From: Methanofastidiosum sp.
GTDB lineage: Archaea; Methanobacteriota_B; Thermococci; Methanofastidiosales; Methanofastidiosaceae
Reading direction: 5' to 3'
Assembly: GCA_020854815.1 (NCBI GenBank)
Contig: JAHKLW010000043.1
Span: 3,170 to 67,169, forward strand
Length of the DNA stretch: 64,000 nucleotides
In this document: positions 1 to 15,062 of the stretch, one piece after another
How the letters are laid out: the number at the start of each line of letters is the position of its first letter
How positions within the stretch are numbered: the stretch's first letter is position 1
Program-made: the position numbers and the translations under genes
The notes under the pieces: generated by a model
Database searches by the model: none
What the model saw: the letters and a program-made list of their open reading frames with translations, nothing else
What the model was told of the DNA's origin: nothing

Positions 1-1080
1 TAGTCTTTTAGCTATCAGGCCTTCAAGAAGATCCTCAGACTCAGCCTTTTTGGCGAGGCTGATCTCTTTCTTTTGACCTGCAGGAACTGTCTGTGGAGTT
101 CCCTTTCCACTTACCTTTGTAGCATCCTGGGCCAGAACTATTAACGTGGAAAACTCCTTGCTGTAAAGCTCGTCTATTCTGGCCTCAGGATCCACACACT
201 TACCGATCTTTGTTTCCGCCAAAACTATCTGCTTGACAAGTGGCTTTTTTTCGATGGCAATGTTTTTGTTCATCGCCTCCACTTCAGCTAATGCCTTGGC
301 GACCTCTTTGTTGTCTACCATTGTTTTTCCTCCTGCAATGCTCATGGGCATTGCATTTTCAATTACTTTGGATCTATACGGGAATCTAATTGCTGTGTTT
401 GGGTCCTGCGGCAAAAAGCATTTTTTATCTTTTTGGCACTTGGGAATGATTGCTATGTGGTCCGCTATGTCGATGTCCCCAATTGCTACCTTTGGGCTGC
501 TCCCTCCAATCATTGATAGATCCAGATTAGCATGCTTATCGTCTAAAAGAAAATCATACATCATTGCAGTCAAACTAGGCTCGTAGTACGATGCTACAAT
601 TGTTCCAACGTCAGGGCCTTCATGTGTTGACTCTGGTGTTGCAAGATCATGATCAACGTATCGTAACGGCTTGTTTCTAAAAAGTGGCGATATCCTCTCA
701 ACATCCTTTGCTGATAGGGTAACATAAGTTCCATCCTTCGCTTTGTATCTGCCTGGTGTAAGCCCTATTGCAGTGTGAATAGTCTTACCTGTCTTAGGGC
801 ATGGCCTTTCGGCTGCCAGAGTAAATTCAGTCAGGTAATACTGCGCATTCTCTACAAAGTTAGGCTCGTAAGGTGCCAGTACTACGGTGACGGTCTTATC
901 GGGTCCTGGATTTATATCACGGACATTGAAATCTTTTAGGGCCTCTTTGATCTTCTCGACCATGGCCTGATCTAGCTGCTCTATCGGCTCCTGGGACTGT
1001 TGCTCCGGCTGTTGCTGCTGTAGTTCTGGCTTTCCCTGCTCCTGGGCAATATCTGTCATCACGTTCTTTGAGGGTGTCAT
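1..1080 (-). CDS. Putative phage head (capsid/scaffold-like) protein, 3' part outside window; not in supplied ORF track
   Basis: Hand-translated every codon from ATG at 1080..1078 down to position 1 with no stop (about 360 aa, MTPSKNVMTDIAQEQGKPELQQQQ...). Q-rich N-terminus. It lies downstream of the terminase-portal-repeat protein genes in the minus-strand head module. Confidence 0.45.
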   Translation of the reverse strand, partial: MTPSKNVMTDIAQEQGKPELQQQQPEQQSQEPIEQLDQAMVEKIKEALKDFNVRDINPGPDKTVTVVLAPYEPNFVENAQYYLTEFTLAAERPCPKTGKTIHTAIGLTPGRYKAKDGTYVTLSAKDVERISPLFRNKPLRYVDHDLATPESTHEGPDVGTIVASYYEPSLTAMMYDFLLDDKHANLDLSMIGGSSPKVAIGDIDIADHIAIIPKCQKDKKCFLPQDPNTAIRFPYRSKVIENAMPMSIAGGKTMVDNKEVAKALAEVEAMNKNIAIEKKPLVKQIVLAETKIGKCVDPEARIDELYSKEFSTLIVLAQDATKVSGKGTPQTVPAGQKKEISLAKKAESEDLLEGLIAKRL

Positions 1081-1081
1081 T

Positions 1082-2326
1082 TTAGCCCTCCTTTGTCCTG
1101 ATGTACTCGATTGATGTTATTGCTCCTGCGGTCTCCCCAACTGTCCCAGCTGATACCTGTACCTGCACGGCTGCGATTCCGTATAGTTCTGGAATAACTA
1201 CTTCAATTAACTGGTCTGCATCGCTGTCAAGCTCTATGTAGTCCTCAGTCGCTGGTATTGTTGCATATGGGCATTTTACCCTGTTGTGGTCCATCAAGAA
1301 CAGATCCGTGTCGCCTACCTCTGTCTTTGCAAGGAATTTTAATCGTGCATTCTGGGAGCTATTGATCTCCACTTTTACATATAGGGCCAGAGAGTCCCAT
1401 CCCTGGACACCGATTGCATCCCCTATATCGTTGAATGTTGCAGTTAGAGTTGCATAATTCATTGTCATTGCCAAGGCTGTGTTTATTGGTGCTGCTTCAA
1501 ATGCCACTAGCTGGATTGATGCATTTCCTGTATGGGTTGTTACTGCAGTGCATGTCAGGTCTGTTACTGCATCTAGCTCTGCTATCAATTCAGAAAGAAG
1601 ATTTCTATCTGCATGTGTGAGATCATACGTTGCATCTGCCGGGGTGTACGTCAGAGTTTTGGCTGTGTTTATTGGTGCTGCTTCCAAGGTGTCAAGAAGT
1701 GCCGAGTCTGTATCTCCTGATATTTCTGTGGCTATTGTGCATGTCAGGTCGGCCTCTGCATGAAGTATTGCTATGATCTCTGTAAAGGTGTTTTTTGCCG
1801 CATTTGTAAGATCGTGTGTCTCATCTGCCGGGGTGTATGTTGCTGTGACTGCTTCAGCCACTAGATCTGTTTCCACCATTGCATCCAAAAGATTTGAATT
1901 GCTGGCCCCTGTTGCCCCTTCATCTATAGTGCATGTGATCCCTTCAACTGCATTGAGGACCGATACCATCTTTGTGATTGTATCCTTGTCACCGTCTGCA
2001 AATGCATAGTTTGTAGGGGTGCCGTCTATTGTTAGAATTACCTTTGTAGCATCTATTGTGATTGTTGCAGTTTCCTCTGCTGTCGGGGTGTAGCTTATCG
2101 AGAAAGCATGGACGTTGGCCCTTGCTATTGTCAGGGTGTCTGTTGCCTGGGCGACTGTGGCCGTTCCTGTACCTGTGTATGTTAGTGTGAATCCTTCAAC
2201 ATTTGCTCTGGCTATTGTCAGGGTGTTTGCTGCAAGTGCTGCAGTTGCTGTGCCTGTACCTGTGTATGTTAGAGTGAGTGCAGACACGTTTGCTATACTC
2301 AAACTTTGCTTACTATCTCTTACCAT
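1082..2326 (-). CDS. Thr/Ala-rich repeat protein (Ig-like beta repeats); putative head decoration or fibre protein
   Basis: 414 aa with internal protein repeats (LTYTGTGTATAALAANTLTIARANV x2; about 60-aa TYTPAD...EAAPINTA x2). Matching DNA tandem repeats are present. It sits in the head gene block. Confidence 0.45.
   Translation of the reverse strand: MVRDSKQSLSIANVSALTLTYTGTGTATAALAANTLTIARANVEGFTLTYTGTGTATVAQATDTLTIARANVHAFSISYTPTAEETATITIDATKVILTIDGTPTNYAFADGDKDTITKMVSVLNAVEGITCTIDEGATGASNSNLLDAMVETDLVAEAVTATYTPADETHDLTNAAKNTFTEIIAILHAEADLTCTIATEISGDTDSALLDTLEAAPINTAKTLTYTPADATYDLTHADRNLLSELIAELDAVTDLTCTAVTTHTGNASIQLVAFEAAPINTALAMTMNYATLTATFNDIGDAIGVQGWDSLALYVKVEINSSQNARLKFLAKTEVGDTDLFLMDHNRVKCPYATIPATEDYIELDSDADQLIEVVIPELYGIAAVQVQVSAGTVGETAGAITSIEYIRTKEG
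1476..1850. repeat. Intragenic tandem repeat, about 186-nt unit x2
   Basis: gctgtgtttattggtgctgcttc... recurs at about 1476 and about 1662; catctgccggggtgta recurs at about 1632 and about 1822. Confidence 0.6.
2117..2290. repeat. Intragenic tandem repeat, about 87-nt unit x2
   Basis: ggcccttgctattgtcagggtgt...cctgtacctgtgtatgttag recurs with few mismatches. Confidence 0.6.
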
Positions 2327-2331
2327 TTCTT

Positions 2332-2556
2332 TTATTCCCTCCTGTCAAAAAAACTAATTATTGCTGCTAGTGCGGCCATGAGCCCTATGCCAGAGCAGAG
2401 GCCTAAGAGAAATCCGCCAAGGAAATCCCCTAGCATGTTCCCCTCCTGTAAAATTTCCTGATGATTAATATTGGAATAAGCAGAATTAGGGCCAAGATCT
2501 TGACTAGAAAGCCTCTCATCTGATGCCCTCCGTTGATATGTTTCCTGCTTCCTCAA
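2332..2556 (-). CDS. Small membrane protein (provirus)
   Basis: 74 aa with a hydrophobic C-terminal half (GGFLLGLCSGIGLMAALAAIISFF). Confidence 0.3.
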   Translation of the reverse strand: MRKQETYQRRASDERLSSQDLGPNSAYSNINHQEILQEGNMLGDFLGGFLLGLCSGIGLMAALAAIISFFDRRE

Positions 2557-3727
2557 TCAGCCTTGCGACTACTTCCTGAGTGATCTGCTGGGATTCAGGG
2601 CCTAATGGAATCTTTTGGGTCATCTGGGTGTATCTGCCGACAGCATCTGCTATCTCCTGAAGTATGCGGACATTTGTCAGGGCATCCATCTGATTGACCC
2701 TATCAAAGGTGACCGTTGCTTTGACACCGAGATGCTTCAAATAGATGTATTCAATGAAAGTTTTCAGCTTGTCCTGATTGGGCTTTACTGCCTCATAGAT
2801 CATGAGCTTGATCCTTGCCTCTGTATCTGACTTGTAGGCATCTGCCATGAGGGCGGCCTTTGGGAAGGATAGATCGACAAATATCTGATCTGAGGCTGTG
2901 TCAATCAACTTGTCGACATTCATCTGAACATTTCCGGGGCCCTTGAACTCTACCTCCCAATCCATCGGCACCATGTAGAATGAATCATAGCTCTCATCCT
3001 GGCCCATCTCGTAGACATCGGCTTTCTCTTCATCTGAGGCAGTGTCAGGATATTTGAAAATTGCAAAAGGTTTCCAGAATCTCTTCATCAAGGTCTTTGA
3101 GCCTTTCTTAATTTCCAGGAGCTGCTCAACTGTATGGAAGGCCGGGAGAGCTGCAGAGATGCCATATAAATCGTCTGAAAAGAGCCTCTTCATTATGAAT
3201 ATCTCTATGTTGTTCTTGTCTAAAAACTGGTGATTTCCCTGCTGGGAGATCTCTTTTATCAGCTGCTTTTCATCATCCCAATCTACAATGAAGCTTCTAG
3301 GATCCCTGATCTTGAAGAGGTCCTCTCCTATTTCCACAACCGCACGGCCAAAGATCAGGGCATTTAGAACTAACATCTTTGCCTTGTCGGCCATCATGAC
3401 CTTTTGATTGAATAGATCTATCATGGTCTGCGAGGCCTCATCCTCTGCCCTAGCCTCAAATCCCTTGGCCGTTGCATCTGCAAGCATGTTGAAGGCGGTG
3501 TTCACCTGCCCGCACTTCATGTAGGCATTTAGCCCCAGCTGCATCATTCTCTCTGGGGCAAGGGGCAGGACCTGATCCTCTGCGGTCTTTTTTGTCTCTG
3601 TAAAGAAAGGCCTTGCAAAGGAGAATATCCTGGATACCCCCCTTGCTATAATGTTCTGTTGTTTTTTCTCAGGTGTCTTTCTGGAAAAAGGATTTCTCAT
3701 TGTATATCTATATGTTTGGAGATGCAT
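2516..3727 (-). CDS. Putative portal protein
   Basis: 403 aa. It is the first large gene after the large terminase in the minus-strand head module. Size and position fit a portal, but no motif-level proof. Confidence 0.4.
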   Translation of the reverse strand: MHLQTYRYTMRNPFSRKTPEKKQQNIIARGVSRIFSFARPFFTETKKTAEDQVLPLAPERMMQLGLNAYMKCGQVNTAFNMLADATAKGFEARAEDEASQTMIDLFNQKVMMADKAKMLVLNALIFGRAVVEIGEDLFKIRDPRSFIVDWDDEKQLIKEISQQGNHQFLDKNNIEIFIMKRLFSDDLYGISAALPAFHTVEQLLEIKKGSKTLMKRFWKPFAIFKYPDTASDEEKADVYEMGQDESYDSFYMVPMDWEVEFKGPGNVQMNVDKLIDTASDQIFVDLSFPKAALMADAYKSDTEARIKLMIYEAVKPNQDKLKTFIEYIYLKHLGVKATVTFDRVNQMDALTNVRILQEIADAVGRYTQMTQKIPLGPESQQITQEVVARLIEEAGNISTEGIR

Positions 3728-3747
3728 ATTAAGAAAGGTGTGAAATT

Positions 3748-3784
3748 ATTTAGGCCCTAAAAATGAAATTTAGGCCCTAAATTT
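3748..3784. repeat. Two direct copies of atttaggccctaaa (20-bp period) in the provirus AT-rich intergenic region
   Basis: Copies at 3748-3761 and 3768-3781, plus a third GGCCCTA at 3829-3835. This is the core of the provirus-wide TTAGGGCC motif. Confidence 0.6.
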
Positions 3785-4068
3785 GAACAAATGTCCAGTT
3801 TTATAAATCTGTCAAGAGGTCAAATCGAGGCCCTATTTTTAGGGGTAGGGGTTTGCGGGTTACAGCGGACATAAAAAAATTATATACCTAGTAGTAATAT
3901 ACTATAATTCTGGCCTTAAAAATAGAATTATTTATATTTTGTCAACACTAAATAAAACTCTAATTAACTTAAAAATTATCAATGGTATATGCAAAATGAA
4001 AATATAAATGAATACTAGGGGAGTAAGAAGCAATAATATAACTTTACCTATCCTCATAATATCTCCTA

Positions 4069-4197
4069 CTAATTTTTTAATCTGGCCAGTTCTACCTCTC
4101 GTCTTGGTATAAGGATGTGGCACTCGCTATAGTCCTCAGCGCTGCAGATCTCCTGCCAGTCGCACCCTATACAGTTACAAGGGGTATTATTTTCCAT
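4069..4197 (-). CDS. Small Cys-rich protein (42 aa), hypothetical
   Basis: MENNTPCNCIGCDWQEICSAEDYSECHILIPRREVELARLKN. Its start overlaps the stop of the upstream small ORF (ATGGAAAATAA). Below the ORF-track size cutoff. Confidence 0.25.
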   Translation of the reverse strand: MENNTPCNCIGCDWQEICSAEDYSECHILIPRREVELARLKN

Positions 4198-4339
4198 CTT
4201 TCTCCTCATCGTCTATGATCTGGACCCTTACTTTTCGGCCAATCCAATCTCTTGGTACGGTGACAGCTCCCCCGCCTCCGCTTTTTGTTACCGTGGCCTC
4301 AAGCCATCCTTTTTCCTTATCAAATCGTATTACCGCCAT
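4187..4339 (-). CDS. AbrB/MazE/SpoVT-like small DNA-binding protein (50 aa)
   Basis: MAVIRFDKEKGWLEATVTKSGGGGAVTVPRDWIGRKVRVQIIDDEEKDGK. The VTVPRDWIG...V.V segment resembles a swapped-hairpin AbrB/MazE fold. Below the ORF-track size cutoff. Confidence 0.35.
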   Translation of the reverse strand: MAVIRFDKEKGWLEATVTKSGGGGAVTVPRDWIGRKVRVQIIDDEEKDGK

Positions 4340-4443
4340 GATGTATATTCCTTTATTTATCTTTATATATCTTTCCGTGTTTAGACCGAAAGCTTTATAT
4401 ATAAGTAATAGTAAGGATTAATAAGGATAAATAAAGAGGTAAT

Positions 4444-4635
4444 ATGATGGATAAGCAAACTGCAATTAGAATGTTTGAAGCAAGAAAGACCTCTATTGAA
4501 GGGGCCATAAAAACTAGATCTGAAGGTAAGAACGACTTCTCCAACTGGAGGCTTGTGTCAGATGAGAAGCTTGAAGGAATACTCTTTGAGGTCAAGAACG
4601 TCCTCAATATACTAAATTTTGTGGAGGGGAATTAA
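4444..4635 (+). CDS. Hypothetical protein (provirus, plus-strand module)
   Basis: 63 aa. First of three translationally coupled plus-strand ORFs, with AT-rich upstream promoter-like sequence. Confidence 0.4.
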   Translation: MMDKQTAIRMFEARKTSIEGAIKTRSEGKNDFSNWRLVSDEKLEGILFEVKNVLNILNFVEGN

Positions 4636-4886
4636 TGAGCCTCTCCAAGGACGATTTGAGATCACTCAGGAGGTACCTCAAGAAGAACTGCCCAGGCCTT
4701 AAAATTACCACTGGCCGGGGTGGATGGCACAGGATGACCTACGTCAGGGGCTCTGGCGAGGGGCAGAAATTCACAGAAGAGGAAGTCCAATTCCTCACTA
4801 AGATAGGGCTTTTACCCTGCAGGAACTTCTCCAGCATTAATATGTTCCAGGCGGAAAAAATATTAGAGGAGGTGATTAGAGCATGA
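4635..4886 (+). CDS. Hypothetical protein (provirus)
   Basis: 83 aa. Overlaps the previous stop (ATGA coupling). Confidence 0.4.
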   Translation: MSLSKDDLRSLRRYLKKNCPGLKITTGRGGWHRMTYVRGSGEGQKFTEEEVQFLTKIGLLPCRNFSSINMFQAEKILEEVIRA

Positions 4887-5263
4887 GCATTGAAGAAGAT
4901 GCTATTAGGATAGTAAATGAGATGGTCAAGCAGATAGGAGATCTTGGAATACCTACACCCGATATGGTCCTTGACTGCTATACTAGAGTTTGGTCCACAA
5001 TGTACATCCAGAGCTCAAAGAACTGCTATGGCAATTCTGGCCCTAGAAATGAGGCCAAGCCAGTAACTCCAGGACCTGAAGATGACCCTATCGTTGCTGC
5101 ACTAAAGAGCATGGACGGATGGGGATATCCTGACAAGATTGCAAAGGCCCTGAATAGCACAGAGTCAGCCGTTGTCCCCCTGATAGAAAATGCACTTGCC
5201 AACGGTAAGATCTACCAGGCCAAGAAGGGCTACTATTCTTTGACTGACAAGCCTAAAAAGTAA
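4883..5263 (+). CDS. Hypothetical protein, possible wHTH C-terminus (provirus)
   Basis: 126 aa. Coupled to the previous ORF and convergent with the terminase gene. Confidence 0.4.
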   Translation: MSIEEDAIRIVNEMVKQIGDLGIPTPDMVLDCYTRVWSTMYIQSSKNCYGNSGPRNEAKPVTPGPEDDPIVAALKSMDGWGYPDKIAKALNSTESAVVPLIENALANGKIYQAKKGYYSLTDKPKK

Positions 5264-6740
5264 ATGCATTTTTATTTTTATATTTCCCTTTTATTATCCT
5301 GCTTCCTTTTATTTGAGGCTTTTTAAATCTCAGGACCCCCATGGCGATTAATAGTGTATCAACATGATCATCATGCTGGCCGACTAGATGGGTGAATCTC
5401 ACATTTCCTGCTGCAGTTACTTCCTTTGTGAAGTCTAAAAATTCTTTTTTTATCTTATCGTCAGTTGAATAGATCTTAATCCTTCCCTCATGGAAATACC
5501 TTGCAAGTGCTTCTACTGCGGTGTTCTTTGATATGGTCCTTCTCTTTACACCGTGTTCCACTCTCTGGTGCTCGGATATTCCAGCAGAGAGCATGCAGCC
5601 TTCGACATTGATATTTTTAGGGCCAAGGGCAGCGGTCAGGACCTCTATCTGATTCTCGCCAACTCCAATATCTGGGAAGATCGCATAAGGCTTTGGCCCT
5701 AATTTTAAGGCCAGCTCTATTGTCTTCTTTGTGACGTATGTATAGGGAGACTGGAAAGAGTGATATTGGACCACTGCAATGTTTTCAGGATCTGTCACGT
5801 CAATAATGGCTATTACCGATTTGTCTCCTGTCAAGAGGGATTTGCCCCAGTCTATGCAGTAGATATATTTTCTCTGCGGATCAGGAGGGACGTACTCTCC
5901 AGGAACAAAAGCCGCCTCAACTTCATCGTAGTCAAAGGGATTGTCTAGGCCTCCTTCAAAGGAGTTCTCATACTGCATTTGGAATATGATCGGGTTGTCA
6001 TCTTTTGCCGATTTGAGGAAGTCCTCCTGCTGTTTGTACTCCTGCTTTGTTATGTATTTTTTCTGCTGCTCTAATGCCTCCCAGCAGCTCACTTTATGGA
6101 CACTGTATTTCCCTGATGTCACGATGTTGTACCAGTCCGCACCCTTCCCGTACTTTCCCCAGGAAGAGGATGCAAGTATCAGTTTACCGCCAGTCTTTAG
6201 TAGTGTTGGCCTTAAAACTGAGGATATGATCGAATCCGCATTCTGTATCCTTCCGACCTCATCAACTAGGGCCAGATGTGTTGAATCCCCTACAGCCGAT
6301 TCCCCGTCTTCAGATAGGGCCATTGCTACCATGCCAGAGCCGTTTGAAAGGGATATCTCCGTCTTTGCCCATCTCAAATCCGTATCTCCGCCCTTTCTAG
6401 TCATTGGCTTTATCAGGTCATTCCAATATGGGGAGCTCCTCAAAAGCTTCTTTGTCCTGTCAAGGATCCTTACCCCATGTTTTAGCCTTACTCCAGTTGC
6501 TGTTATGAAAAAATAATCGTTCAATAACAGCTGCGATGCCGCCTTGACGGATAGTGTCATAGTCTTCCCGGTCTGCCTTGACTGGAGCCATGCCTGGAAC
6601 TGCGAATCATCCCTGATGAATTCCCTCTCATAGGGATATAAGAAAAGCTCCTTCCCTTCCCAGGTGAAAAAATCTGTTGCAAAGTCCTCTGGAAATTTTT
6701 TATAATACTCGTTAATCTTCTGGGAAAGTCCGGGTATCAT
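5253..6740 (-). CDS. terL: Terminase large subunit
   Basis: 495 aa. Walker A QSRQTGKT, Walker B-like LALVDE, nuclease-domain acidic motifs YCIDWG and HDDHVD. Confidence 0.85.
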   Translation of the reverse strand: MIPGLSQKINEYYKKFPEDFATDFFTWEGKELFLYPYEREFIRDDSQFQAWLQSRQTGKTMTLSVKAASQLLLNDYFFITATGVRLKHGVRILDRTKKLLRSSPYWNDLIKPMTRKGGDTDLRWAKTEISLSNGSGMVAMALSEDGESAVGDSTHLALVDEVGRIQNADSIISSVLRPTLLKTGGKLILASSSWGKYGKGADWYNIVTSGKYSVHKVSCWEALEQQKKYITKQEYKQQEDFLKSAKDDNPIIFQMQYENSFEGGLDNPFDYDEVEAAFVPGEYVPPDPQRKYIYCIDWGKSLLTGDKSVIAIIDVTDPENIAVVQYHSFQSPYTYVTKKTIELALKLGPKPYAIFPDIGVGENQIEVLTAALGPKNINVEGCMLSAGISEHQRVEHGVKRRTISKNTAVEALARYFHEGRIKIYSTDDKIKKEFLDFTKEVTAAGNVRFTHLVGQHDDHVDTLLIAMGVLRFKKPQIKGSRIIKGKYKNKNAFTF

Positions 6741-6748
6741 CCATGCAC

Positions 6749-7267
6749 TTACTCCAGTATGAATGACTTAAAATAGGTGAAGAATCCCGCCTGGATATCT
6801 TCCTCGGGGATATTTAAATTTTGGGCCAAAAGCTTACGGTACCAGTAGAGCTGCGAGCCTACGTTATAGTTCCTGTAATTCTTGAAGTCCCATATCTCAA
6901 TCTTTCCGGCATTGAATCTTATGATGTCTATGTGGCCAGAGACGTTGTCAAAGAAGGAGTATATCGGGACCTCTGCTGCTACCGTCAGATCGTCATGATC
7001 TATCATGTAGTTCTCCACCTGATCATGTGGGCTCCCAGGGTAGAGGCGGAAGGCTTCTTTGGCCATCTCCGGGAGCTCTGTATCAATCTCTATGTAGTGC
7101 TTGTACTTCGGCTCCCTCATCACTGAGGCCCTGCCCATGAAAGGGAAGAGTTCTTTATGCCACCTGTCGCCTTCCTCATAGACTTTTTTTAGGTAACTAT
7201 CCAGGCTATCTATAGTTTTTTTATTCACTTTGTGCTGGAAAAGGTAATACGGGGCCTTTACCCCCAT
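6749..7267 (-). CDS. Hypothetical protein between TerS-like and TerL
   Basis: 172 aa, no recognizable motif. Confidence 0.4.
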   Translation of the reverse strand: MGVKAPYYLFQHKVNKKTIDSLDSYLKKVYEEGDRWHKELFPFMGRASVMREPKYKHYIEIDTELPEMAKEAFRLYPGSPHDQVENYMIDHDDLTVAAEVPIYSFFDNVSGHIDIIRFNAGKIEIWDFKNYRNYNVGSQLYWYRKLLAQNLNIPEEDIQAGFFTYFKSFILE

Positions 7268-7293
7268 CTTTTTTGTAATGATCTCATCATCTG

Positions 7294-7827
7294 TTATTTG
7301 AAATCCCTCCTCTTCATTCTTAGGGCCACAATGGCCTCAATCTCCGTGATGCTTGCCGGGGGCTTTTCTCCGCCGTCCTGGTCCAGTTCATCTAATATCT
7401 GCATGATAGTCTTTGCTATTGCGGAAACATTGTCAAGGGGAACGTCAAGATATGTGAGGTACTGCATCCTTGCCATGAGCTTTATCAGGGTGTCCATCCT
7501 CACTTGAGTTGCCGCAGCTTCTGGATCCAATTCAAATTCTGGCAGGAGACTTTCGGCAATCTCCTTGTAGTACTTGCTCTTGTCCATCGAGTTCTGCAGT
7601 AACTTGCTATACTTGCCATGCTTTGTGTGGGTGAGTGCGACTTTCAATCTGCCCTGAGCAGTTTTAGGGCCAGTAGAAGATCCGCCGTGGAGCTTGCATC
7701 TCCCCTCACCCGGGTGATCAGTGCCCCACCCTGCAGGCCTCTTGCACGGCTTTTTCGATTGCTTTGCATTTGCCCCGCATGTAGGATAGGTAACTTCCTT
7801 TTCTTCCCCCGGCCCTAGTAGCAGCAT
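7294..7827 (-). CDS. Terminase small subunit-like protein (Zn-ribbon CxnC...GRCKLHGG motif)
   Basis: CGANAKQSKKPCKRPAGWGTDHPGEGRCKLHGGSSTGPKT matches the GWGTDH...GRCxxHGG signature of a widespread phage small-terminase family. Lies upstream of terL. Confidence 0.5.
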   Translation of the reverse strand: MLLLGPGEEKEVTYPTCGANAKQSKKPCKRPAGWGTDHPGEGRCKLHGGSSTGPKTAQGRLKVALTHTKHGKYSKLLQNSMDKSKYYKEIAESLLPEFELDPEAAATQVRMDTLIKLMARMQYLTYLDVPLDNVSAIAKTIMQILDELDQDGGEKPPASITEIEAIVALRMKRRDFK

Positions 7828-7866
7828 CTAGTTTTTCTCCTTTGAAAATAAAAAAAATAATAAGGC

Positions 7867-8187
7867 CTATGAGCAGGGCGGGCTTACAGTGCGGTCAACT
7901 TTAGGGCAGTTGACGGTGACAGTTCCAGTTATGACGTACTTGTAAATCTCCTGAGTCCTGTTCAGATTGTCGATGTACTCCGTTGCCTTAAGCCATCCAG
8001 CAGCCTTGAACTGCAGGAATACCTTTGATTCCTTGTAATTACTGTTGCTTGTATTCAGCCCAGCTGGCTCCCTTAGCTGGTACCAGAACTCGTTGCCCTC
8101 CCTATTCAGGGTATTGACTAGAACTCCCCTCACCCAGACCTTATTCTTTCTCAACTTGTCGAGATATTCTTTTGCCGATTCAAACAT
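7867..8187 (-). CDS. Hypothetical protein (provirus)
   Basis: 106 aa. Confidence 0.35.
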   Translation of the reverse strand: MFESAKEYLDKLRKNKVWVRGVLVNTLNREGNEFWYQLREPAGLNTSNSNYKESKVFLQFKAAGWLKATEYIDNLNRTQEIYKYVITGTVTVNCPKVDRTVSPPCS

Positions 8188-8200
8188 TGCAACACCTCGT

Positions 8201-8434
8201 TTACTCCTTTATCAGTTTGGCCTTGAGCATGGCAGCTCTTAGCTTCTTAGCCTCCGCCTCTACTTTGTCTAATTGGACCAATCCGAATAGAACTAAGATA
8301 GATATGACTGCTGACCCTATCGTTTGCAGTAGATCTGCATAGTTGCTGAAGCCTAACTGGCCCACGAGATTCACTAGAATTGCAAGGATTGCCAATAATT
8401 GTGTTTTATTCAGTGCCATAGCAAACACCTCCAT
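8201..8434 (-). CDS. Small two-TM membrane protein (holin-like?)
   Basis: 77 aa with two hydrophobic segments and a charged C-terminus. Confidence 0.3.
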   Translation of the reverse strand: MEVFAMALNKTQLLAILAILVNLVGQLGFSNYADLLQTIGSAVISILVLFGLVQLDKVEAEAKKLRAAMLKAKLIKE

Positions 8435-8630
8435 ATAGCTAAAGTGCTTATGGGCATATTAAGAAAGGTGTGAGAAAAAAAGAAAAATTATTTCTTGATT
8501 CTATCTCTGCAACGGCTACATAGATTTTCTGCTTGCCCGTGATAATTGTCTCCTTGCCGAACTGGCTCAGTCCAATAACACCCTCCTGGACATGCATAGT
8601 GATCAGAACATCCGCAAATTCTACATACTG

Positions 8631-8867
8631 TCAATTTATCAATCCCTGCAGCCAATTCTCAAATATTTTAACAGAATGTACAGCCCATACCCTATCCTGT
8701 TCTTTTTGTTCTTCTGTTAGATCAATATAATCTATCCATAATTGCTGCCATCGATTGAATCTTTCAAGGCTTATTTTCTCAGTTTCTGCTATGTTTTTAC
8801 TCCAGTTCATCCACTGCTTATGCTCCAAGTCTGATAGCCTTTCAATTAGTTCCTGTCTTGAATTCAT
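8631..8867 (-). CDS. Hypothetical protein (provirus)
   Basis: 78 aa, coupled to the upstream ORF. Confidence 0.35.
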   Translation of the reverse strand: MNSRQELIERLSDLEHKQWMNWSKNIAETEKISLERFNRWQQLWIDYIDLTEEQKEQDRVWAVHSVKIFENWLQGLIN

Positions 8868-9232
8868 TTCATCCCCCGTATGAATCTGATCACCTGTGAG
8901 TCTGAGAACTGCTTGAAGGCCTCGGGCATGGCTTTGACGACTTCCTTCATCTGTGCGATATCGACTTCCTTTTCACCCTTCTCTAGCTCCGTTAAAATTA
9001 GGGCCAGAGCTTCTGGAGAGATTGGCGGCTCGTCAACATTGATGTCCTTTTCCAGGAGGTCTAAGATCTTCTTTATCATCTCGTCATGGCTTTTGAGCTG
9101 CACTTTTATGTCGAAAAGCTCCGACTCAATTTTAGGGCCAGTGTCGATGGTGATGGTGGAGTACGGTACCTCAGGGTATTTTGAGAGCCGGGCATCGGGC
9201 CTGTTTTTAGGGCCAGTTTCAGTGGGCCTCAT
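8864..9232 (-). CDS. Hypothetical protein (provirus)
   Basis: 122 aa. Contains three copies of the TTAGGGCCAG motif. Confidence 0.4.
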   Translation of the reverse strand: MRPTETGPKNRPDARLSKYPEVPYSTITIDTGPKIESELFDIKVQLKSHDEMIKKILDLLEKDINVDEPPISPEALALILTELEKGEKEVDIAQMKEVVKAMPEAFKQFSDSQVIRFIRGMK

Positions 9233-9410
9233 GATGGTATCTTTTGCATTTGCTTTCTCAACTATACCTATTTTACCATCTCCTTTTTCACTGTCTTTAG
9301 AAGCTCCTCTACCCCGGCCTTATCTGGGCCCTCGCACTGGATGTTGATCTTTGTGCCTGTGAATGGATTGTTTTCCTTGTAGAATATCTTCCAGGGTGTT
9401 GCTTCTTCTG

Positions 9411-9764
9411 TCAAGTTGAGGCCTCCAAGATTGTCTTTTGCCCTTCTGGCAGCAGGAATTTAGCTATGTCTGCAAATGTTAATTCTGGAAAATCAGAAGA
9501 AAAAAATAGATTATCCCTAGTTACCTTGTCGCCCATCCTCTGGAGTATTCCATCATGCCCCTGCCAATCGCCTATAATCCTTTCAATGTCTTGGAGAACT
9601 CTTTCAAGATTTTCCTTCGTGATCTCTTTCATGTAGCCATTGTAATGACAATTCCCGTAATGCTTGCCAGCTGAATAGTTGAATCTCTCTTTCCCGGCAT
9701 ATGTTGTTTTTTCTATCGTGATGGTGTACTTTGTTCCTTTTGGAATCTTGTAGTCCCTGCTCAT
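9411..9764 (-). CDS. Hypothetical protein (provirus)
   Basis: 117 aa. Confidence 0.35.
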   Translation of the reverse strand: MSRDYKIPKGTKYTITIEKTTYAGKERFNYSAGKHYGNCHYNGYMKEITKENLERVLQDIERIIGDWQGHDGILQRMGDKVTRDNLFFSSDFPELTFADIAKFLLPEGQKTILEAST

Positions 9765-10057
9765 TTAATTTCCTCAAAGTAGTGCATCCATCCTTTCTCG
9801 TCAGGACTATACTTGCCATAAAGCTCTGTCCAGAACTTGACAAAATCCTCGGCTGTTTTGAATCCGCACCTCGGGTAAAGGAAGGCCTCTATCGTCTTTA
9901 AGTGGCACTCGAACACGTTGGTGAACTTGTAGGTCTTGCCGAATGCCTCGAATGTGTCTCCATTATCGCCCTTCTTTTCAGTCCTTATGGTTGCTACCTT
10001 TGTGCCTTTCTTAAGCGGGGCCTTGAATCTCTCGTTGAATTTGAGCTCTACTTTCAT
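9761..10057 (-). CDS. ASCH-domain-like protein
   Basis: 98 aa. LKKGTKVATIR fits the ASCH GxKxxExR motif. Confidence 0.4.
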   Translation of the reverse strand: MKVELKFNERFKAPLKKGTKVATIRTEKKGDNGDTFEAFGKTYKFTNVFECHLKTIEAFLYPRCGFKTAEDFVKFWTELYGKYSPDEKGWMHYFEEIK

Positions 10058-10332
10058 CCCGCTGCCACTTCCTTCTCCTTTGATGGAGTGTGGTCAAGCT
10101 TCTGCTGGAAATCTTCCTCGAGGGAGTCTTCCTTGTGGAGCTCTGCCATGATGCTCATTATCCTGTTCATGTATATCCTCTTGCAGTCCTCGCAAAGAGG
10201 CGAGCCTTTCACCTTGTCAACGTAGGCCACTGCCCCGTACTCCTTCGGCTTTGAAATCTCGAATGTGATCTTGGCTTCGTATGTCGCTAGATATCCACAT
10301 ATGACACATGGGTCCAACTCGTCATCAGTCAT
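10054..10332 (-). CDS. Zn-ribbon protein
   Basis: 92 aa, with CVICG...CEDCKR. Confidence 0.35.
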   Translation of the reverse strand: MTDDELDPCVICGYLATYEAKITFEISKPKEYGAVAYVDKVKGSPLCEDCKRIYMNRIMSIMAELHKEDSLEEDFQQKLDHTPSKEKEVAAG

Positions 10333-10448
10333 TCACTAGCCTCTTTGCCTCTTCCATGTGCCATTCTTTTCTTCCTGGCATGTTTTCTGATAAGGGATCT
10401 TCTGCAAGCTCCCTGTGTGCTTTTGCAGATTCAAGATCTGCTATTCTT

Positions 10449-10718
10449 TCACTTTCTGTTCTTTTTTCCATTTCTTTTTTCATCTCCTATTTTTTCTAAT
10501 TTCAGTACATGTATGCAGGGCCTCTTCCTGTTGTACGAATCAGGACATGAGCACCAGTAGTCCGGCCACCCTTCATCAGGCTTGAGATCTATCGATGCGA
10601 TATGCCCCTTCGTAGTTATGCCCCAGAGAAACGAGCCTGCCCTGCCTGTGGCCTTAAATTCAACTTCTGGAATCTTGGCCAGCTGCCCTTTTGTCGGCTC
10701 GTACTCGGATAGCTTCAT
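10449..10718 (-). CDS. SWIM zinc-finger protein
   Basis: 89 aa. WCSCPDSYNRKRPCIHV fits the CxCxnCxH SWIM pattern. Confidence 0.45.
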   Translation of the reverse strand: MKLSEYEPTKGQLAKIPEVEFKATGRAGSFLWGITTKGHIASIDLKPDEGWPDYWCSCPDSYNRKRPCIHVLKLEKIGDEKRNGKKNRK

Positions 10719-11077
10719 TTACCACCTCTAGTTAATTTTAGGGCCAGCTCACAGTCTGGATGTGCCCCGTGCTTCAATTCTGCAAATGTCTGGTAGAATA
10801 GTCCGCAGATTGGGCATGTTTCCTTAGGGGTAATTCTTGATTCGATTTTGAATATGAATCTCCTGTTTGATAATAGAATTGTTACAAGACTTAGACGGTA
10901 GTAATAGATTCCAAATAATCTATCATCCTGTCTTTCTTTCCTTCCAATATCGACATTAATAAAAAATGAGAATATCTTCAGAAAGAAGTAGCCACGTCTG
11001 ATGATCATGTCAAAATGCCTAATGGTCTTCATGGCCTGCCCCCGATGTTCTTCACTTTGAAATAGAAGCCCTTCCAC
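10715..11077 (-). CDS. Hypothetical protein with C-terminal Zn finger
   Basis: 120 aa, with CPICG...HPDC. Confidence 0.35.
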   Translation of the reverse strand: MEGLLFQSEEHRGQAMKTIRHFDMIIRRGYFFLKIFSFFINVDIGRKERQDDRLFGIYYYRLSLVTILLSNRRFIFKIESRITPKETCPICGLFYQTFAELKHGAHPDCELALKLTRGGK

Positions 11078-11523
11078 TGCGATAATGCCCTCTCAACTAT
11101 GCCCCTGAGCTGCTGCTCCTTGTCATATGTGGGCATCTGCTCTAAAGTTCTCAACGTGAGAGACACCTGAATTAGATCAGATATCAGGAGGTCCAACTGT
11201 TCTGGCCCTAACTTTATCATCTGTGTGATTTCCCTCTTGCCGTCAGAATCAATCTTTGGGAAAAGAGATATCGATATGAAGGCCTTGTTATTCATCGTGC
11301 CACGTTCAGGGAGTATTCCTGCAGAGGCTGTGACAAAGTATTTATCCAGAGGGTAGCCGTTCCTGATCTCAAGTTCTACCCCATTCTTTGAAGTTATGAG
11401 GGCCGTTTCCCTCCTGTCTCTCGATAATCCTTTTCTCGGTGTGTCAGGAATGCCAGCGAATAGCTTCTGCTGTGCCACGTCAAGGGGATCTTCTACCTTA
11501 TAGGTCAGAAAAATCCCTCCCAA
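11029..11523 (-). CDS. Hypothetical protein (provirus)
   Basis: 164 aa. Confidence 0.35.
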   Translation of the reverse strand: MGGIFLTYKVEDPLDVAQQKLFAGIPDTPRKGLSRDRRETALITSKNGVELEIRNGYPLDKYFVTASAGILPERGTMNNKAFISISLFPKIDSDGKREITQMIKLGPEQLDLLISDLIQVSLTLRTLEQMPTYDKEQQLRGIVERALSQWKGFYFKVKNIGGRP

Positions 11524-12478
11524 GCCTTGAATTCAAGAAGTCCATCTGTGCATGAAGCCCCTCTCCATAAGCCTCAATCTTTGACCTGTGGGCATCACAT
11601 GCAGTAAATCCATACATTATTGTAGTGGCCTTATTACTGCAGAAGGCGCATGTATAGCTACTGGCCTTAGAATTAAGATCTAATTTCTCCAGGTATGCTA
11701 GAATAGCTTTTAGATATAGCGGCATCCTGGCAAAGTCCATGGCGGCTTCCGGTGTCTCAAACTCTAGCTCAGTGCCTTCCTGATCTGAATCGTCCATGTG
11801 GCAGTCCTGGCCTTGTATGGTGAACTGGTCGAATTTTCCAAAGTTGAATTTAGGATCTTCAAGTACAAAGTGGGGCTTTCTATTGATCTTCCCAAAAGAA
11901 AGCTTTAGGCCAAGGAAACTGTTCTCTAGCTTCTGTGCATAGACGTTTGCAAGATTCAAAGCCTCGCTAAGTAGATCATAGGAGTTTGATTTCCTCTCAA
12001 TCTTGGGGTAAATTATCACACTTTTGGTAGTTTTTTCTATTGTTACAGCTGGCAGTTTTGTGTATTCCTTGGCCCAATTGTTCAAGTTTACCTCTTTGTC
12101 AAGGGTAAATGTGCTAGGAGCGGACAAGATATCATATCTTATGCCTATATTATGCATGGAAAATGAGGCTTTTGTGTTCTCATCCCCAGTGAGGGATTTA
12201 TTGGAACATTGGAACTTTGATGGAACTTTGTTCCCAGTATTGCTTAACACCCTGTATAGCTTAGGCCACTCCGATACCTGTTCGATTAATCCAGACTTTT
12301 CCAGCCTTTGAATTGCCCTAGATACTTTATTCCTTCTTATTCCCATGTTTCGGGCAATCTGTGCAGGATAAAGGCCAGAGTCCAGAAGTGATAAAATCCT
12401 CTCATCTACCAAAGTTCCATCTATTGTTCCACTCTCTGGAACTTTCTGCCCTGCACGATTGGAAGCTTTGCCCTGCAC
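11498..12478 (-). CDS. Winged-helix DNA-binding protein with C-terminal Cys cluster (regulator or replication-associated)
   Basis: 326 aa. wHTH-like LYPAQIARNMGIRRNKVSRAIQRLEKSGLIEQ, plus CAFCSNK...CDAH. Confidence 0.4.
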   Translation of the reverse strand: MQGKASNRAGQKVPESGTIDGTLVDERILSLLDSGLYPAQIARNMGIRRNKVSRAIQRLEKSGLIEQVSEWPKLYRVLSNTGNKVPSKFQCSNKSLTGDENTKASFSMHNIGIRYDILSAPSTFTLDKEVNLNNWAKEYTKLPAVTIEKTTKSVIIYPKIERKSNSYDLLSEALNLANVYAQKLENSFLGLKLSFGKINRKPHFVLEDPKFNFGKFDQFTIQGQDCHMDDSDQEGTELEFETPEAAMDFARMPLYLKAILAYLEKLDLNSKASSYTCAFCSNKATTIMYGFTACDAHRSKIEAYGEGLHAQMDFLNSRLGRDFSDL

Positions 12479-12480
12479 GA

Positions 12481-12906
12481 TTACGACCTCATGCTTTCCC
12501 TTACGGAGAGGTACTGCTCCCCTCTCTTGGTGACGTAGTATTTCCTCGCTTCATCACAGGAGACCAATCGGTCCATGAAGGCCTTGTCAAATGCGGAAAA
12601 TGAGGGGCACTCTGGATTCTTCTTTATGTCTATGATTGAAGTTGGCCCTAATTTTAGAAGCAGCTTTACGAGCCTGTACTCCTGGTCCGCCATGCTCTCC
12701 CACTGGTAGATGGGCTTATCGTTAGACTTCTGGCCAATCTCTACGTCCCGCCTCTTCATCATCTTCTTCAGCCATTCACATTGGGCTGTGGCTGGCATCT
12801 TCTCCCAGATCATCTCCCGAAGATCGTCATGGTCAAGGAAGTTTACGGCCTCTTCCATGGAGAGTGTGATCTTAATCTCCTCACATTTCCCTGGCAGAAA
12901 TATCAC
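12481..12906 (-). CDS. Hypothetical protein (provirus)
   Basis: 141 aa. Confidence 0.35.
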   Translation of the reverse strand: MIFLPGKCEEIKITLSMEEAVNFLDHDDLREMIWEKMPATAQCEWLKKMMKRRDVEIGQKSNDKPIYQWESMADQEYRLVKLLLKLGPTSIIDIKKNPECPSFSAFDKAFMDRLVSCDEARKYYVTKRGEQYLSVRESMRS

Positions 12907-14006
12907 CCGAATGTGAACTTTGTCTTAAGCGAATCCATAACTAGGCCTATCGGATTTGCAAGGGTGATAACGTCAGAGCCTGCAAACAATAGGGCCACAG
13001 GCCTTCCGTCCATATCCATTATGAGGCTTCCAGAATCTCCGCCGTCTGAGAAGGGGTAGGGATTACCTGATTCGATTACTATCTGGCTCTCAAATAGTAT
13101 GCTCCCGCAGTCGTACCATATCCTTGATGCTGCATTTATTCCCGTTATCTTTCCCTCGGTGTAGAATGTTGTCCTTCCCACCTTGTTGACCCTTAGGCCG
13201 ACCTTTGGATTTAGCAGCGGCGATTTAATCGGGAGATCTCCATACTGCCCTAGCTTGCTCTCTATGTCCTTGTTGATCTTTGCTAGGCAGCAATCTACAT
13301 AGTTCACCCCGTTAGGATCTATAAGCACTGCTTCATGCACTGTGGCAACTGCATCATCAGGGCTTACTCCATCGTCATAGTCCCCAGGCTGTATGACCGT
13401 ATCTCCTTTCTTTCCTTTGTTCTCGTTGTTTAAGACATGAAGATTTGAGAGAATGAATCTCTCTCCTGTTTCTATCTCAGGGGGATCTTCTGGATCTGGT
13501 GTTGGAGGTTCGGGGGTATCATCATTAAAAAAAAGCCTCATTAGCCAGTTCCATATCCTGCTTAAGATACTGCCACCTGAAAGAGATCTCTTTACAGCAC
13601 TTCTAATTCCAATGACTACAGCACCTAAAGTTCCGGCTGTGATGTCAATATGCCCTACTGAGATGCCTGCCTTAATCGGCCTCCATCTCTCCTGCTGCGG
13701 CTCTTTTGTTTGTGTCCTGATTGGGGGATTTGCATATATCCTTCCCACCTGAACTACGTCTGTAATCTTTCCGTCAAGCTTTCTAGGGAGCATGTCTATC
13801 TTCTGCTTTTTGAGCTCCTTTGGCGATAGCTTCTTTTCTACCCCGATTACTATGGCATGTACAGGTTTGCCGTTTTCATCGTAGACTGTCTTCTCTTCCT
13901 TCTTCTTGACACCCTCATAGATTATCTGGACGTTGGGATTAGTTTTCAGAATGTCAATATTGCTCAGATGATCCCCTCCTGGAAGTACCTGGAGTATGAG
14001 CTGCAC
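12903..14006 (-). CDS. Trypsin-like (S1 family) serine peptidase with Pro/Glu-rich linker
   Basis: 367 aa. GDSGS active-site Ser motif with upstream candidate His (TVHEA) and Asp (DCCLAK). PEPPTPDPEDPPE linker. Confidence 0.55.
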   Translation of the reverse strand: MQLILQVLPGGDHLSNIDILKTNPNVQIIYEGVKKKEEKTVYDENGKPVHAIVIGVEKKLSPKELKKQKIDMLPRKLDGKITDVVQVGRIYANPPIRTQTKEPQQERWRPIKAGISVGHIDITAGTLGAVVIGIRSAVKRSLSGGSILSRIWNWLMRLFFNDDTPEPPTPDPEDPPEIETGERFILSNLHVLNNENKGKKGDTVIQPGDYDDGVSPDDAVATVHEAVLIDPNGVNYVDCCLAKINKDIESKLGQYGDLPIKSPLLNPKVGLRVNKVGRTTFYTEGKITGINAASRIWYDCGSILFESQIVIESGNPYPFSDGGDSGSLIMDMDGRPVALLFAGSDVITLANPIGLVMDSLKTKFTFG

Positions 14007-14440
14007 TCAATTTTTCTTATTCTAAAAATAGGGCCAAAATTGTCAACTGCCTTGATGTATGTGAGATCTCCAAAAATAGAAAGGCCTTTTATCATCCTCT
14101 TCAGCTGGGCCATCTTGTAGCTTTTTGGCGGCAGGGCTGTCATTGCATCAGTTAAGTATGCTGCAGCTGCCAGCTGCTTGGCCTTGTTGATCATGTCCCT
14201 GATCTCTATCCTTTGAGGATTTATGTCGCCCTCTTTGTTCTGGAGGTCATTTTTCAAGTAGATGTGGTAGAAGATAGCATCGCTTGGAGGGAGCCTTACC
14301 TCGCTTAAGATATCGACAGTCTCACCCCTGGCATTCTTCAAGGGCATGACGTAGGCATTTGGGATTGTGATATCCTCGGCTATTTCTATGCTTGTGGAGA
14401 GTATGAGCCTGTTGTCATTTGTCCCAACTATATGTATCAA
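13964..14440 (-). CDS. Hypothetical protein near att/tRNA end
   Basis: 158 aa, no integrase motifs recognized. Confidence 0.35.
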   Translation of the reverse strand: MIHIVGTNDNRLILSTSIEIAEDITIPNAYVMPLKNARGETVDILSEVRLPPSDAIFYHIYLKNDLQNKEGDINPQRIEIRDMINKAKQLAAAAYLTDAMTALPPKSYKMAQLKRMIKGLSIFGDLTYIKAVDNFGPIFRIRKIECSSYSRYFQEGII

Positions 14441-14787
14441 GTGGAGGCCTCCTCTTTTGCATAGCAGAATAGGAGCATGCCATTGTGGTAATGGTATGGG
14501 ATGTATGTTGGCTGAAGACTTCCATCCTTTCTTCTTGATAGTATGGGCTTGACATTTTCCGCTATGGTGATTGGCACAGACACATATGTCCTCTTGGTAT
14601 TTGAGTAATGGACCGGGAGATTCTTAGCATCCATCTCCTCATCAAACGATAAGGCCACCCATTTCATGTTCTCGTCTATTAAAAATCGGACATAACGAGG
14701 CTTCAGCTGCTGCTCTTCTAGGGCCCTGTTGATGTACATTCTTCTCGGGTAGAGCAAGATCTTGCCCTCTCCTTTGGAGTGCTTCAT
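14437..14787 (-). CDS. Hypothetical protein adjacent to tRNA-Leu
   Basis: 116 aa, coupled (ATGA) to the downstream ORF. Confidence 0.35.
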   Translation of the reverse strand: MKHSKGEGKILLYPRRMYINRALEEQQLKPRYVRFLIDENMKWVALSFDEEMDAKNLPVHYSNTKRTYVSVPITIAENVKPILSRRKDGSLQPTYIPYHYHNGMLLFCYAKEEAST

Positions 14788-14939
14788 CTCCTTTAAGGTA
14801 GGCTCTACCTCTCTAAATTCAAACTTTCCAAAATCGATTTCTTCTTTGGCAAGATTTGTCCTGCCGGGTATTACAAGTTTTTTTTCTTCCGTTTAAGACA
14901 CCTTTGGGATTAGTCCCCAAAGAGTAAAGAAAAGACCAG

Positions 14940-15027
14940 TGGTGCGGGAGCTGGGATTTGAACCCAGGAAGACCTACATCACAGGGTCCTAAGCCCTGCA
15001 CCTTTGACCAGGCTCGGCAACCCCCGC
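14940..15027 (-). tRNA. tRNA-Leu (anticodon UAG), type II long variable arm, CCA encoded
   Basis: Reverse complement folds as a cloverleaf: acceptor GCGGGGG/CTCCCGC, anticodon stem CAGGG/CCCTG with loop CTTAGGA, 14-nt variable arm, T-arm CTGGGTTCAAATCCCAG. The GC jump occurs exactly at its 3' end. Confidence 0.85.
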
Positions 15028-15047
15028 ATGGTAATTAAATCCAAACC

Positions 15048-15062
15048 ATATATTTTGAAGTG
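15048..15062 (-). promoter_or_regulatory. Putative TATA box for tRNA-Leu
   Basis: aaaatatat on the minus strand, about 25-35 nt upstream of the tRNA 5' end. Confidence 0.3.

Follow-up and report, generated by a model that had tools for sequence, protein, structure and literature searches.

A probable temperate provirus of high GC content at the tRNA-Leu(UAG) gene of Candidatus Methanofastidiosum

The stretch of DNA analysed here (the window: 64,000 nucleotides (nt) of contig JAHKLW010000043.1, assembly GCA_020854815.1) begins with a GC-rich block, positions 1-14939, which ends at a tRNA-Leu gene and encodes a large terminase, a small-terminase-like protein and a putative portal protein, and which we take to be, most probably, one half of a temperate virus of Candidatus Methanofastidiosum. 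The tRNA gene, with anticodon UAG, lies at 14940-15027 on the minus strand and was found both by ARAGORN and by Rfam (RF00005, 50.1 bits). The GC content is 0.4466 for positions 1-14939 and 0.3303 for positions 15028-64000, a gap of 11.6 points, and in 100-nt windows the fall was placed at about 15000-15100, no more than about 100 nt from the tRNA. GC content at third codon positions (GC3) is 0.52 in the element and 0.26 in the host, a gap of 26 points, with each open reading frame (ORF) of the element at 0.39 or above and a maximum of 0.36 among 33 host ORFs. An earlier reading of this DNA by a model that saw the letters and their ORFs (the sequence-only reading) had placed a minus-strand tRNA-Leu(UAG) at the edge of the block, had described an abrupt switch from 45-50% to 28-32% GC, or 15-20 points, and had proposed sliding-window GC and tetranucleotide profiles as a check. 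Both profiles were computed and are step-like at the tRNA, tetranucleotide distance changing at the same point as GC; the tRNA call and the abrupt step in GC, GC3 and tetranucleotides were confirmed, but the size of the step had been slightly overstated, the measured gap being about 12 points.

The large terminase (TerL; 5253-6740, minus strand), composed of an ATPase and an RNaseH-like nuclease domain, matched phrog_2 (E=5e-19) and, weakly, Pfam Terminase_6N/6C. The Walker A GKT, the Walker B DE and the Asp residues of the nuclease are invariant in the family alignment, in agreement with the ATPase and nuclease motifs that had been noted from the letters. The protein is 100% identical to GenBank MCC7572843.1 (KO464_05590), which belongs to a Candidatus Methanofastidiosum sp. 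metagenome-assembled genome (MAG) and is annotated as 'hypothetical protein'; thus the provirus is already in the public record, unannotated. The small-terminase-like protein (TerS; 7294-7827, minus strand), which had likewise been recognised, matched phrog_9231 (4.9e-8) and has an N-terminal HGGxSTG domain that scored above its cut-off (NCBIfam NF041373, 41.1 bits, cut-off 29). Between the two terminase genes, at 6749-7267 on the minus strand, a nuclease or exonuclease-like protein of the PD-(D/E)XK type was weakly assigned (phrog_3953, 1.2e-5; Pfam PDDEXK_1, 0.0037, under the cut-off).

The putative portal protein of 393 amino acids (aa) is encoded at 2516-3697 on the minus strand, with a start possibly as far upstream as 3727. 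It matched Pfam PF04860 (Phage_portal; 2e-5, 24 bits against a cut-off of 39), phrog_113 (2e-6) and TIGR01537 (1e-5), while seven of eight homologues matched PF04860 and five of the eight matched PF06074 (Portal_Mu). The earlier portal call is therefore supported by matches that are consistent across homologues, but every one of them is sub-threshold. Both the position and the size of the gene fit the assignment. A PDB profile search with the portal gave nothing significant, and its AlphaFold2 (AF2) model, built from an 8-sequence alignment, had a predicted local distance difference test (pLDDT) score of 40, too poor for a fold search.

Directly downstream of the portal gene, at 1082-2326 on the minus strand, lies an ORF for a Thr/Ala-rich protein of 414 aa, which has syntenic orthologues of 413-428 aa and, judged by position, is probably head-associated. 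It contains 87-nt (29-aa) tandem repeats at 2112-2294 and further 186-189-nt repeats, is the most variable structural gene among relatives of the element (66-80% aa identity), and had no significant family match. Its AF2 single-sequence model reached a pLDDT of 42 and was unusable; the pLDDT values of about 40 for this protein and the portal result from shallow alignments. The last structural-module ORF in view (1-1080, minus strand) is an open frame homologous to proteins of 349-369 aa in the relatives and, when aligned with the orthologues of contigs L087, L097 and L081, proves nearly complete, the window edge cutting off about 3-4 residues of its C-terminus. Its N-terminus is rich in Q, P and E, its C-terminus is coiled-coil-like, it had no Pfam, PHROG or PDB match, and its position suggests a scaffold or protease. 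In the relatives the module goes on, outside the window, to a 313-aa capsid candidate, which matched no PHROG, Pfam, NCBIfam or PDB profile; PDB profile searches with this protein and with the 349-aa protein gave nothing significant. Downstream of the head genes the relatives encode a DUF2341 protein of 570-591 aa, an LTD-domain protein (in L097) and an ORFan of 1150-1220 aa, none of them assignable as tail. Overall, none of the structural proteins downstream of the portal had a PHROG, Pfam, NCBIfam or PDB-profile match. Hidden Markov model searches of the head genes against PHROGs, as the sequence-only reading had proposed, therefore gave a divided answer, with TerL, TerS and the portal matching but the other structural proteins not. 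Its description of the element as tailed-virus-like holds for the terminase and is consistent with the portal, but no capsid or tail protein was recognised, and it is the terminase-portal pair, and only that pair, that suggests the capsid fold and the presence of a tail.

Several smaller genes complete the block. A 50-aa DUF2080-like ORF lies at 4187-4339 on the minus strand, its syntenic counterparts of 49-50 aa in relatives matching PF09853 (1.7e-6). At 4444-5263 there are three small plus-strand ORFs (63, 83 and 126 aa), which had been singled out as the exception to leftward transcription; this divergent trio is kept in all relatives and had no significant family match. About ten small ORFs of 77-164 aa occupy the early region (7867-11523, minus strand), mostly ORFans, several with CxxC pairs. 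They are followed, on the same strand, by a 326-aa protein with an N-terminal winged helix-turn-helix (wHTH) of the TrmB/MarR-like kind (11498-12478; Pfam TrmB 28.3 bits, cut-off 25.6; HTH_20 27.7, cut-off 27), which also matched phrog_2440 (2.6e-9) and, weakly, replication-initiator PHROGs, and which is a candidate regulator or replication initiator. The claim that this region encodes small Zn/HTH proteins was upheld for the wHTH protein, the only one to pass Pfam thresholds, but not for the rest, as a SWIM finger in the ORF at 10449-10718 is sub-threshold and the others are ORFans. A 141-aa ORF kept in relatives (12481-12906, minus strand) precedes a trypsin-fold serine protease of the S64/Nal1-like kind (12903-14006, minus strand; phrog_20754, 9.3e-45; Pfam Peptidase_S64, 33.6 bits, cut-off 23.6), which sits in the early region, outside the head module. 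Nearest to the tRNA are two att-proximal ORFs of 158 and 116 aa (13964-14787, minus strand), the second absent from L081.

The low-GC part of the window encodes methanogenesis marker 2, Hef, Rad50, TrkAH and pyruvate kinase. The pyruvate kinase, whose gene (pyk) adjoins the tRNA, is 83-91% identical to that of Candidatus Methanofastidiosum MAGs, in which the tRNA-Leu(UAG)-pyk synteny is kept, and the host is Candidatus Methanofastidiosum. When 13 related Methanofastidiosum MAG contigs were compared, the window was homologous to all 13 rightwards from 14940-14942, the 3' end of the tRNA, and to none of them leftwards. Two of these contigs (L004 and L009) have a conserved gene of about 2.1 kb immediately beside the tRNA, which marks them as empty sites. 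The same gene lies 1-5 kb away from the tRNA in L005, L013 and L011, which carry smaller inserts of 1-5 kb at this place, while L001 and L010 lack it within 9.3 kb. In L010 (4497-9151) two tyrosine integrases were found at the same tRNA, together with an arm that resembles that of the window; one of them is 31% identical to the provirus integrase described below and belongs to an unrelated element. In L001 (3268-9079) the tRNA is flanked by a primase-polymerase/D5-helicase element with HNH. Since other mobile elements are found at the same site in relatives, tRNA-Leu(UAG) is an integration hotspot; no protein homology was seen between the element and the occupants of this site in other Methanofastidiosum MAGs, which are different elements. 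Six of the 13 contigs end within about 350 nt of the tRNA, five on the element-facing side (L002, L003, L006, L008 and L012) and L007 on the pyk side, as would be expected if assembly or binning broke at a variable site of deviant composition. Proviruses of this kind are probably under-represented in MAGs.

Relatives of the element were found in other metagenomes, with 70-93% nt identity, 43-44% GC and the same gene order, and in a large protein collection homologues of TerL are 85-93% and homologues of the portal 88-93% identical. Two of these relatives repeat the junction of the window. In L081, from an ENA hydrocarbon metagenome, 41 nt of a Methanofastidiosum tRNA promoter region and a complete tRNA-Leu are followed by the element arm of the window, and L086 starts inside the tRNA and runs into the same arm. 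This arm (14868-14939, minus strand), common to the three sequences, adjoins the att core and contains a conserved 8-9-bp hairpin (CTTTGGGG...CCCAAAG) and an A-run; the fold (-15.9 kcal/mol, z -1.4) is not exceptional.

The gene order beyond the left edge of the window can be followed in the composite L087+L093 (JGI contig Ga0255346_1000297, 85.9 kb), where proteins of 414, 349, 139, 313, 112, 247, 132, 85 and 200 aa are succeeded by a 591-aa DUF2341 protein, a 1223-aa ORFan, a radical-SAM/SPASM maturase, an RNaseH-like exonuclease and a 282-aa tyrosine integrase. The integrase, encoded in L093 and L098-L105, matched PF00589 (1.9e-29), and its best NCBIfam match was archaeal XerA (NF040815, 7.8e-46); its score of 157 bits is under the XerA equivalog cut-off of 220, so that it is not the chromosomal XerA. 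In L093, L094 and L095 a displaced segment of the tRNA, starting from position 27, lies about 90 nt past the integrase stop. The segment in L093 (...ggcccaatc/GTGCAGGGCTTAGGACCCTGT/ctcgtagg...cccccgcac/ttttttt) corresponds to tRNA-Leu from position 27 to the 3' end, in the variant of the L010/L011 host species, and beyond it 2.46 kb are 98.9% identical to, and collinear with, the native flank in L011. In L099 and L100 the displaced segment starts from position 22 and is followed by an L006-like native flank (84% over 412 nt). Taken with the empty sites, reciprocal junctions of this kind bear the mark of site-specific integration. The att core runs from tRNA position 22/27, in the anticodon stem, to the 3' end, about 60-66 nt, and corresponds to window 14940-15006. 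Integration at the tRNA-Leu, as the sequence-only reading had it, is thus supported by empty sites, independent junctions and far ends, but the core reaches well into the gene and is not limited to its 3' end. In L093 and L099 an unbroken integrase ORF stops about 90 nt short of the att core, and no integrase fragment adjoins the tRNA in the window; as the gene is unsplit, integration is not of the SSV type.

The whole unit measures from about 28.3 kb, in the L087+L093 composite, to 29.7 kb, from integrase to integrase in scaffold Draft_10000612. No second copy of the tRNA 3' segment was found in the window or in the left flanks of the relatives, and the far ends of the relatives bear out the earlier expectation that the far att site, like the remaining structural genes, is to be sought beyond the window start. 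To judge from the relatives' sequences, the integrase and far att site of the window copy should lie about 13-15 kb left of position 1, and the far repeat should read ...CAAAGGTGCAGGGCTTAGGACCCTGTGATGTAGGTCTTCCTGGGTTCAAATCCCAGCTCCCGCAC, followed by Methanofastidiosum flank. The GenBank contig that encodes MCC7572843.1 is 78,684 bp long, which leaves at most 14.7 kb of it beyond the window. As the missing half is of about that size, the contig may end at or near the far att site. Scaffold Draft_10000612 itself (JGI 3300001567, 60.4 kb; L098 10922) contains the element twice, in copies that are 99.9% identical and about 29.7 kb apart; a single N joins them, with the integrase-side arm before it and the 5' part of the tRNA after it. 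The pair may represent either a tandem lysogen or an artefact of scaffolding at the att repeat. The join was rejected as a clean attP or circular junction on account of the N and of the host-only 5' part of the tRNA that comes next.

We consider it highly probable that window 1-14939 is the tRNA-proximal half of a temperate Methanofastidiosum virus of the terminase/portal type (Duplodnaviria/Caudoviricetes-like), integrated in tRNA-Leu(UAG) and stably high in GC. The proposal of a provirus at the tRNA-Leu(UAG) of a low-GC archaeon, first made from the letters, is carried by the hallmark genes, the empty sites, the independent junctions and the far ends with integrase and displaced tRNA. In such a virus a XerA-like tyrosine integrase, seen in the relatives and presumed for the window copy, would be encoded at the far end of a genome of about 28-30 kb, and would recombine the host tRNA gene with a viral attP that includes a copy of the tRNA from position 22/27 to its 3' end. 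The tRNA would stay intact after integration, its 3' two-thirds supplied by the virus, and the displaced native 3' segment would be left as a direct repeat at the far junction, beside the intact integrase gene. Leftwards from the tRNA, the genome would be ordered into early or regulatory genes (the 158-aa ORF, the serine protease, the wHTH protein and small ORFans), the small terminase, the nuclease and the large terminase, then the divergent small-ORF trio, the portal and the head genes, and, outside the window, the remaining structural genes, the DUF2341 fibre-like protein, the 1150-1220-aa protein, the radical-SAM/SPASM maturase, the exonuclease and the integrase.

Several points weigh against this interpretation. 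No major capsid or tail protein was recognised by PHROGs, Pfam, NCBIfam or PDB sequence profiles, and the portal matches are all under curated cut-offs. The far half of the window copy, with its integrase and second att site, lies outside the window, the two junctions were never met on a single contig, and the junction in the window is that of the assembled MAG contig.

It is from some of these points that a second explanation draws, namely that the block is a defective or domesticated prophage remnant, a gene transfer agent-like or a satellite element, instead of part of a functional temperate virus. Only half of the element is visible, its capsid and tail genes are unrecognised, and it has no recognisable replication polymerase, primase or helicase. 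Nevertheless, all visible ORFs are of full length against their orthologues and free of frameshifts, purifying selection is strong, and the relatives, which were met in many unrelated metagenomes, carry a complete syntenic gene set with the integrase; furthermore, the element is absent from most related genomes, unlike what a fixed, domesticated element would show. We therefore regard a defective or domesticated element as unlikely.

The high GC content invites another explanation, which the sequence-only reading had favoured in taking the excess to mean recent acquisition or a different usual host. The element would then be a newcomer, or a virus of a GC-richer archaeon, whose composition is an un-ameliorated foreign signature. 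Viruses are usually at or under the GC of their host, whereas here the excess amounts to 11.6 points in GC and 26 in GC3, and the element is missing at this site from 13 of 13 related genomes. However, at least six relatives keep a GC of 43-44% although they differ from the window by 7-30% of their nucleotides, and every visible host junction is with a tRNA-Leu of Methanofastidiosum, at least two species groups of the host (window/L006-type and L011-type) being represented. Identity is 84-93% for TerL and 95-97% for TerS at the aa level, against about 65% at third positions of identical codons. With the proteins conserved and third positions about 35% diverged, the lineage is old and under purifying selection, has not drifted towards the host GC3 of 0.26, and must have held its composition for long. 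Codons ending in G and those ending in C are both raised in the element, while habits specific to the host, with Arg almost only AGR and Ile-ATA at 47%, are common to element and host. A host jump marked by a GC-rich sister lineage was rejected, since the sister TerL lineage (42-44% identity) has a GC of about 38%, not higher; a DNA modification caused by the radical-SAM gene (QueE-like) was rejected as well, the gene being of the SPASM peptide-maturase type. Recent transfer, or a GC-richer usual host, is thus quite unlikely, and that part of the earlier account was not upheld; the GC excess is, as far as the compared sequences tell, a stable, maintained property of the virus lineage and not the trace of a recent transfer. 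CTG and CTC take a far larger share of the Leu codons in the element than in the host (CTG 18% against 4%), and CTA and CTG would be read by the tRNA-Leu(UAG) whose 3' part the element supplies, which is possibly coincidental.

An assembly or binning chimera, in which a GC-rich viral contig was misjoined to a Methanofastidiosum contig at a common tRNA-like sequence, might find favour in the step exactly at a conserved tRNA, in the six MAG contigs that break there and in the JGI scaffold joined via an N, but is very improbable given that the same junction of arm and tRNA recurs in independent assemblies of other samples (L081, L086), that the reciprocal far junctions (L093/L094/L095 and L099/L100) mark site-specific integration, not mis-assembly, and that the virus would target tRNA-Leu(UAG) even were the window contig misjoined.

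Two further features of the relatives were observed. In L081 (12735-20911), as well as in L082-L084, all from oil-sands or hydrocarbon samples, the whole run of structural genes, portal through DUF2341 fibre gene, together with a 252-aa gene, is inverted with respect to TerL, with a breakpoint near window 4058, and colinear forms are those of L087, L097 and window 1-4058. An active invertible structural module was rejected, as the inverted (L081-84) and colinear forms are different lineages with 70-93% identity, and the inversion appears to be a lineage-specific rearrangement. The radical-SAM/SPASM peptide maturase (L093 13600-14664; L098 8085-9080) is PapB/SCIFF-like (E=1e-59, under the equivalog cut-off) and is placed between the 1150-1220-aa ORFan and the integrase; a maturase of the type that serves ribosomally synthesised and post-translationally modified peptides (RiPP) is unusual for an archaeal provirus.

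Elements that target tRNA genes and keep the tyrosine-recombinase gene intact are known in bacteria, in the style of P4 and lambda, and in archaea, where the 'pNOB8-type' is distinguished from the 'SSV-type'. Like these intact-integrase elements and XerA, the element described here has a Phage_integrase domain, an attP with the 3' part of a tRNA, a flanking direct repeat and an intact integrase gene beside att, but its integrase is at the end distal from the intact tRNA and its long core reaches back to the anticodon stem. In contrast to the SSV-type, the att site is not in the integrase ORF and there are no int(N) and int(C) fragments. With the T4-like/phrog_2 terminases (Thermus phage phiFa, Halogranum tailed virus 1, Campylobacter CP220-like phages, and Erwinia and Aeromonas jumbo phages) TerL shares the two-domain architecture and the catalytic motifs, but it is only 23-28% identical to them. 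Temperate head-tail viruses or proviruses of methanogens include psiM100 of Methanothermobacter wolfeii. Another such virus is MSTV1 of Methanobrevibacter smithii (PMC11375127). Compared with these two, the element likewise is integrated in a methanogen chromosome, has a terminase-portal module and an integrase, and is compact, at about 30 kb; it differs in that its structural proteins have no PHROG match and its GC is well over that of its host.

A tblastn search with TerL against 50,697 phage records returned no methanogen virus among its matches, the best of which, 23-28% identical, were to Thermus, Halogranum and Campylobacter phages, and no recognisable similarity of TerL or portal to a classified methanogen virus or other cultured archaeal tailed virus was found, TerL being at most 28% identical to those records. 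When 1.84 billion cluster representatives were scanned by HMMER with TerL, seven proteins had E<=1e-30 and 21 had E<=1e-10, and so few matches indicate a very small, isolated clade. Scans of IMG/VR with TerL and with the TerL alignment gave no relatives. In the full-text literature searched, outside of which the main methanogen-virus compendium falls, no virus or provirus of Methanofastidiosia was described, and only bulk host prediction in digesters was met. The lineage is thus one of temperate archaeal viruses of the terminase/portal type with tyrosine-recombinase tRNA integration, previously unannotated, in a host class without described viruses in the literature searched.

The lineage also carries a motif of its own. 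The most over-represented 8-mer of the 15-kb block, TGGCCCTA, occurs 17 times against 1.2 expected under a third-order Markov model. It extends to a 14-nt consensus, yTGGCCyTAAAAtTr (core TGGCCyTAAAAtT; sequence of the lineage motif TGGCCCTAAAATT), with 19 copies at window 936-12652, about 1.3 per kb, on both strands and mostly within ORFs in varying frames (for example at 3753, 3773, 5695/5705, 7664, 9132, 9207 and 11204). An inverted pair lies within TerL, and a tandem, near-palindromic pair at 3748-3787, made of two copies of the motif (ATTTAGGCCCTAAA) upstream of the portal gene, is a candidate operator or protein-binding site. Every relative (L081, L086, L087+L093, L092, L097 and L098) shows a 10-15-fold enrichment; host DNA and the sister virus lineage do not. 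The positions of most sites are conserved, but identity is 0.87 in the core against 0.85 in the flanks, which is not decisive. An origin as a by-product of GGCC restriction-site avoidance was rejected, since GGCC is not depleted. We suggest, tentatively and with considerable doubt, that no virus lineage of Methanofastidiosia was recognised before this one, which would rank as a family or higher, and that it actively keeps its GC excess alongside the dispersed motif; the motif would act as a virus-specific 'self' signal in DNA, analogous to uptake sequences or Chi-like motifs. The wHTH or the small-terminase protein, for example, could bind the motif in the service of silencing, replication or packaging.

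Digesters and hydrocarbon-rich sediments commonly harbour Methanofastidiosia, uncultured methanogens of the methyl-reducing kind. Where provirus detection or binning relies on composition, proviruses such as this one would be liable to be split or discarded, which fits the breaks of MAG contigs at the tRNA. Structural and functional work could start from the enriched motif and from the structural proteins, hardly any of which are recognisable. The class gains a host-anchored virus lineage with defined att sites and an integrase, and the tRNA-Leu(UAG) gene becomes a hotspot of mobile genetic elements that can be used for mining more of them, while the lineage itself offers a counter-example to the rule that a large GC excess means recent transfer.

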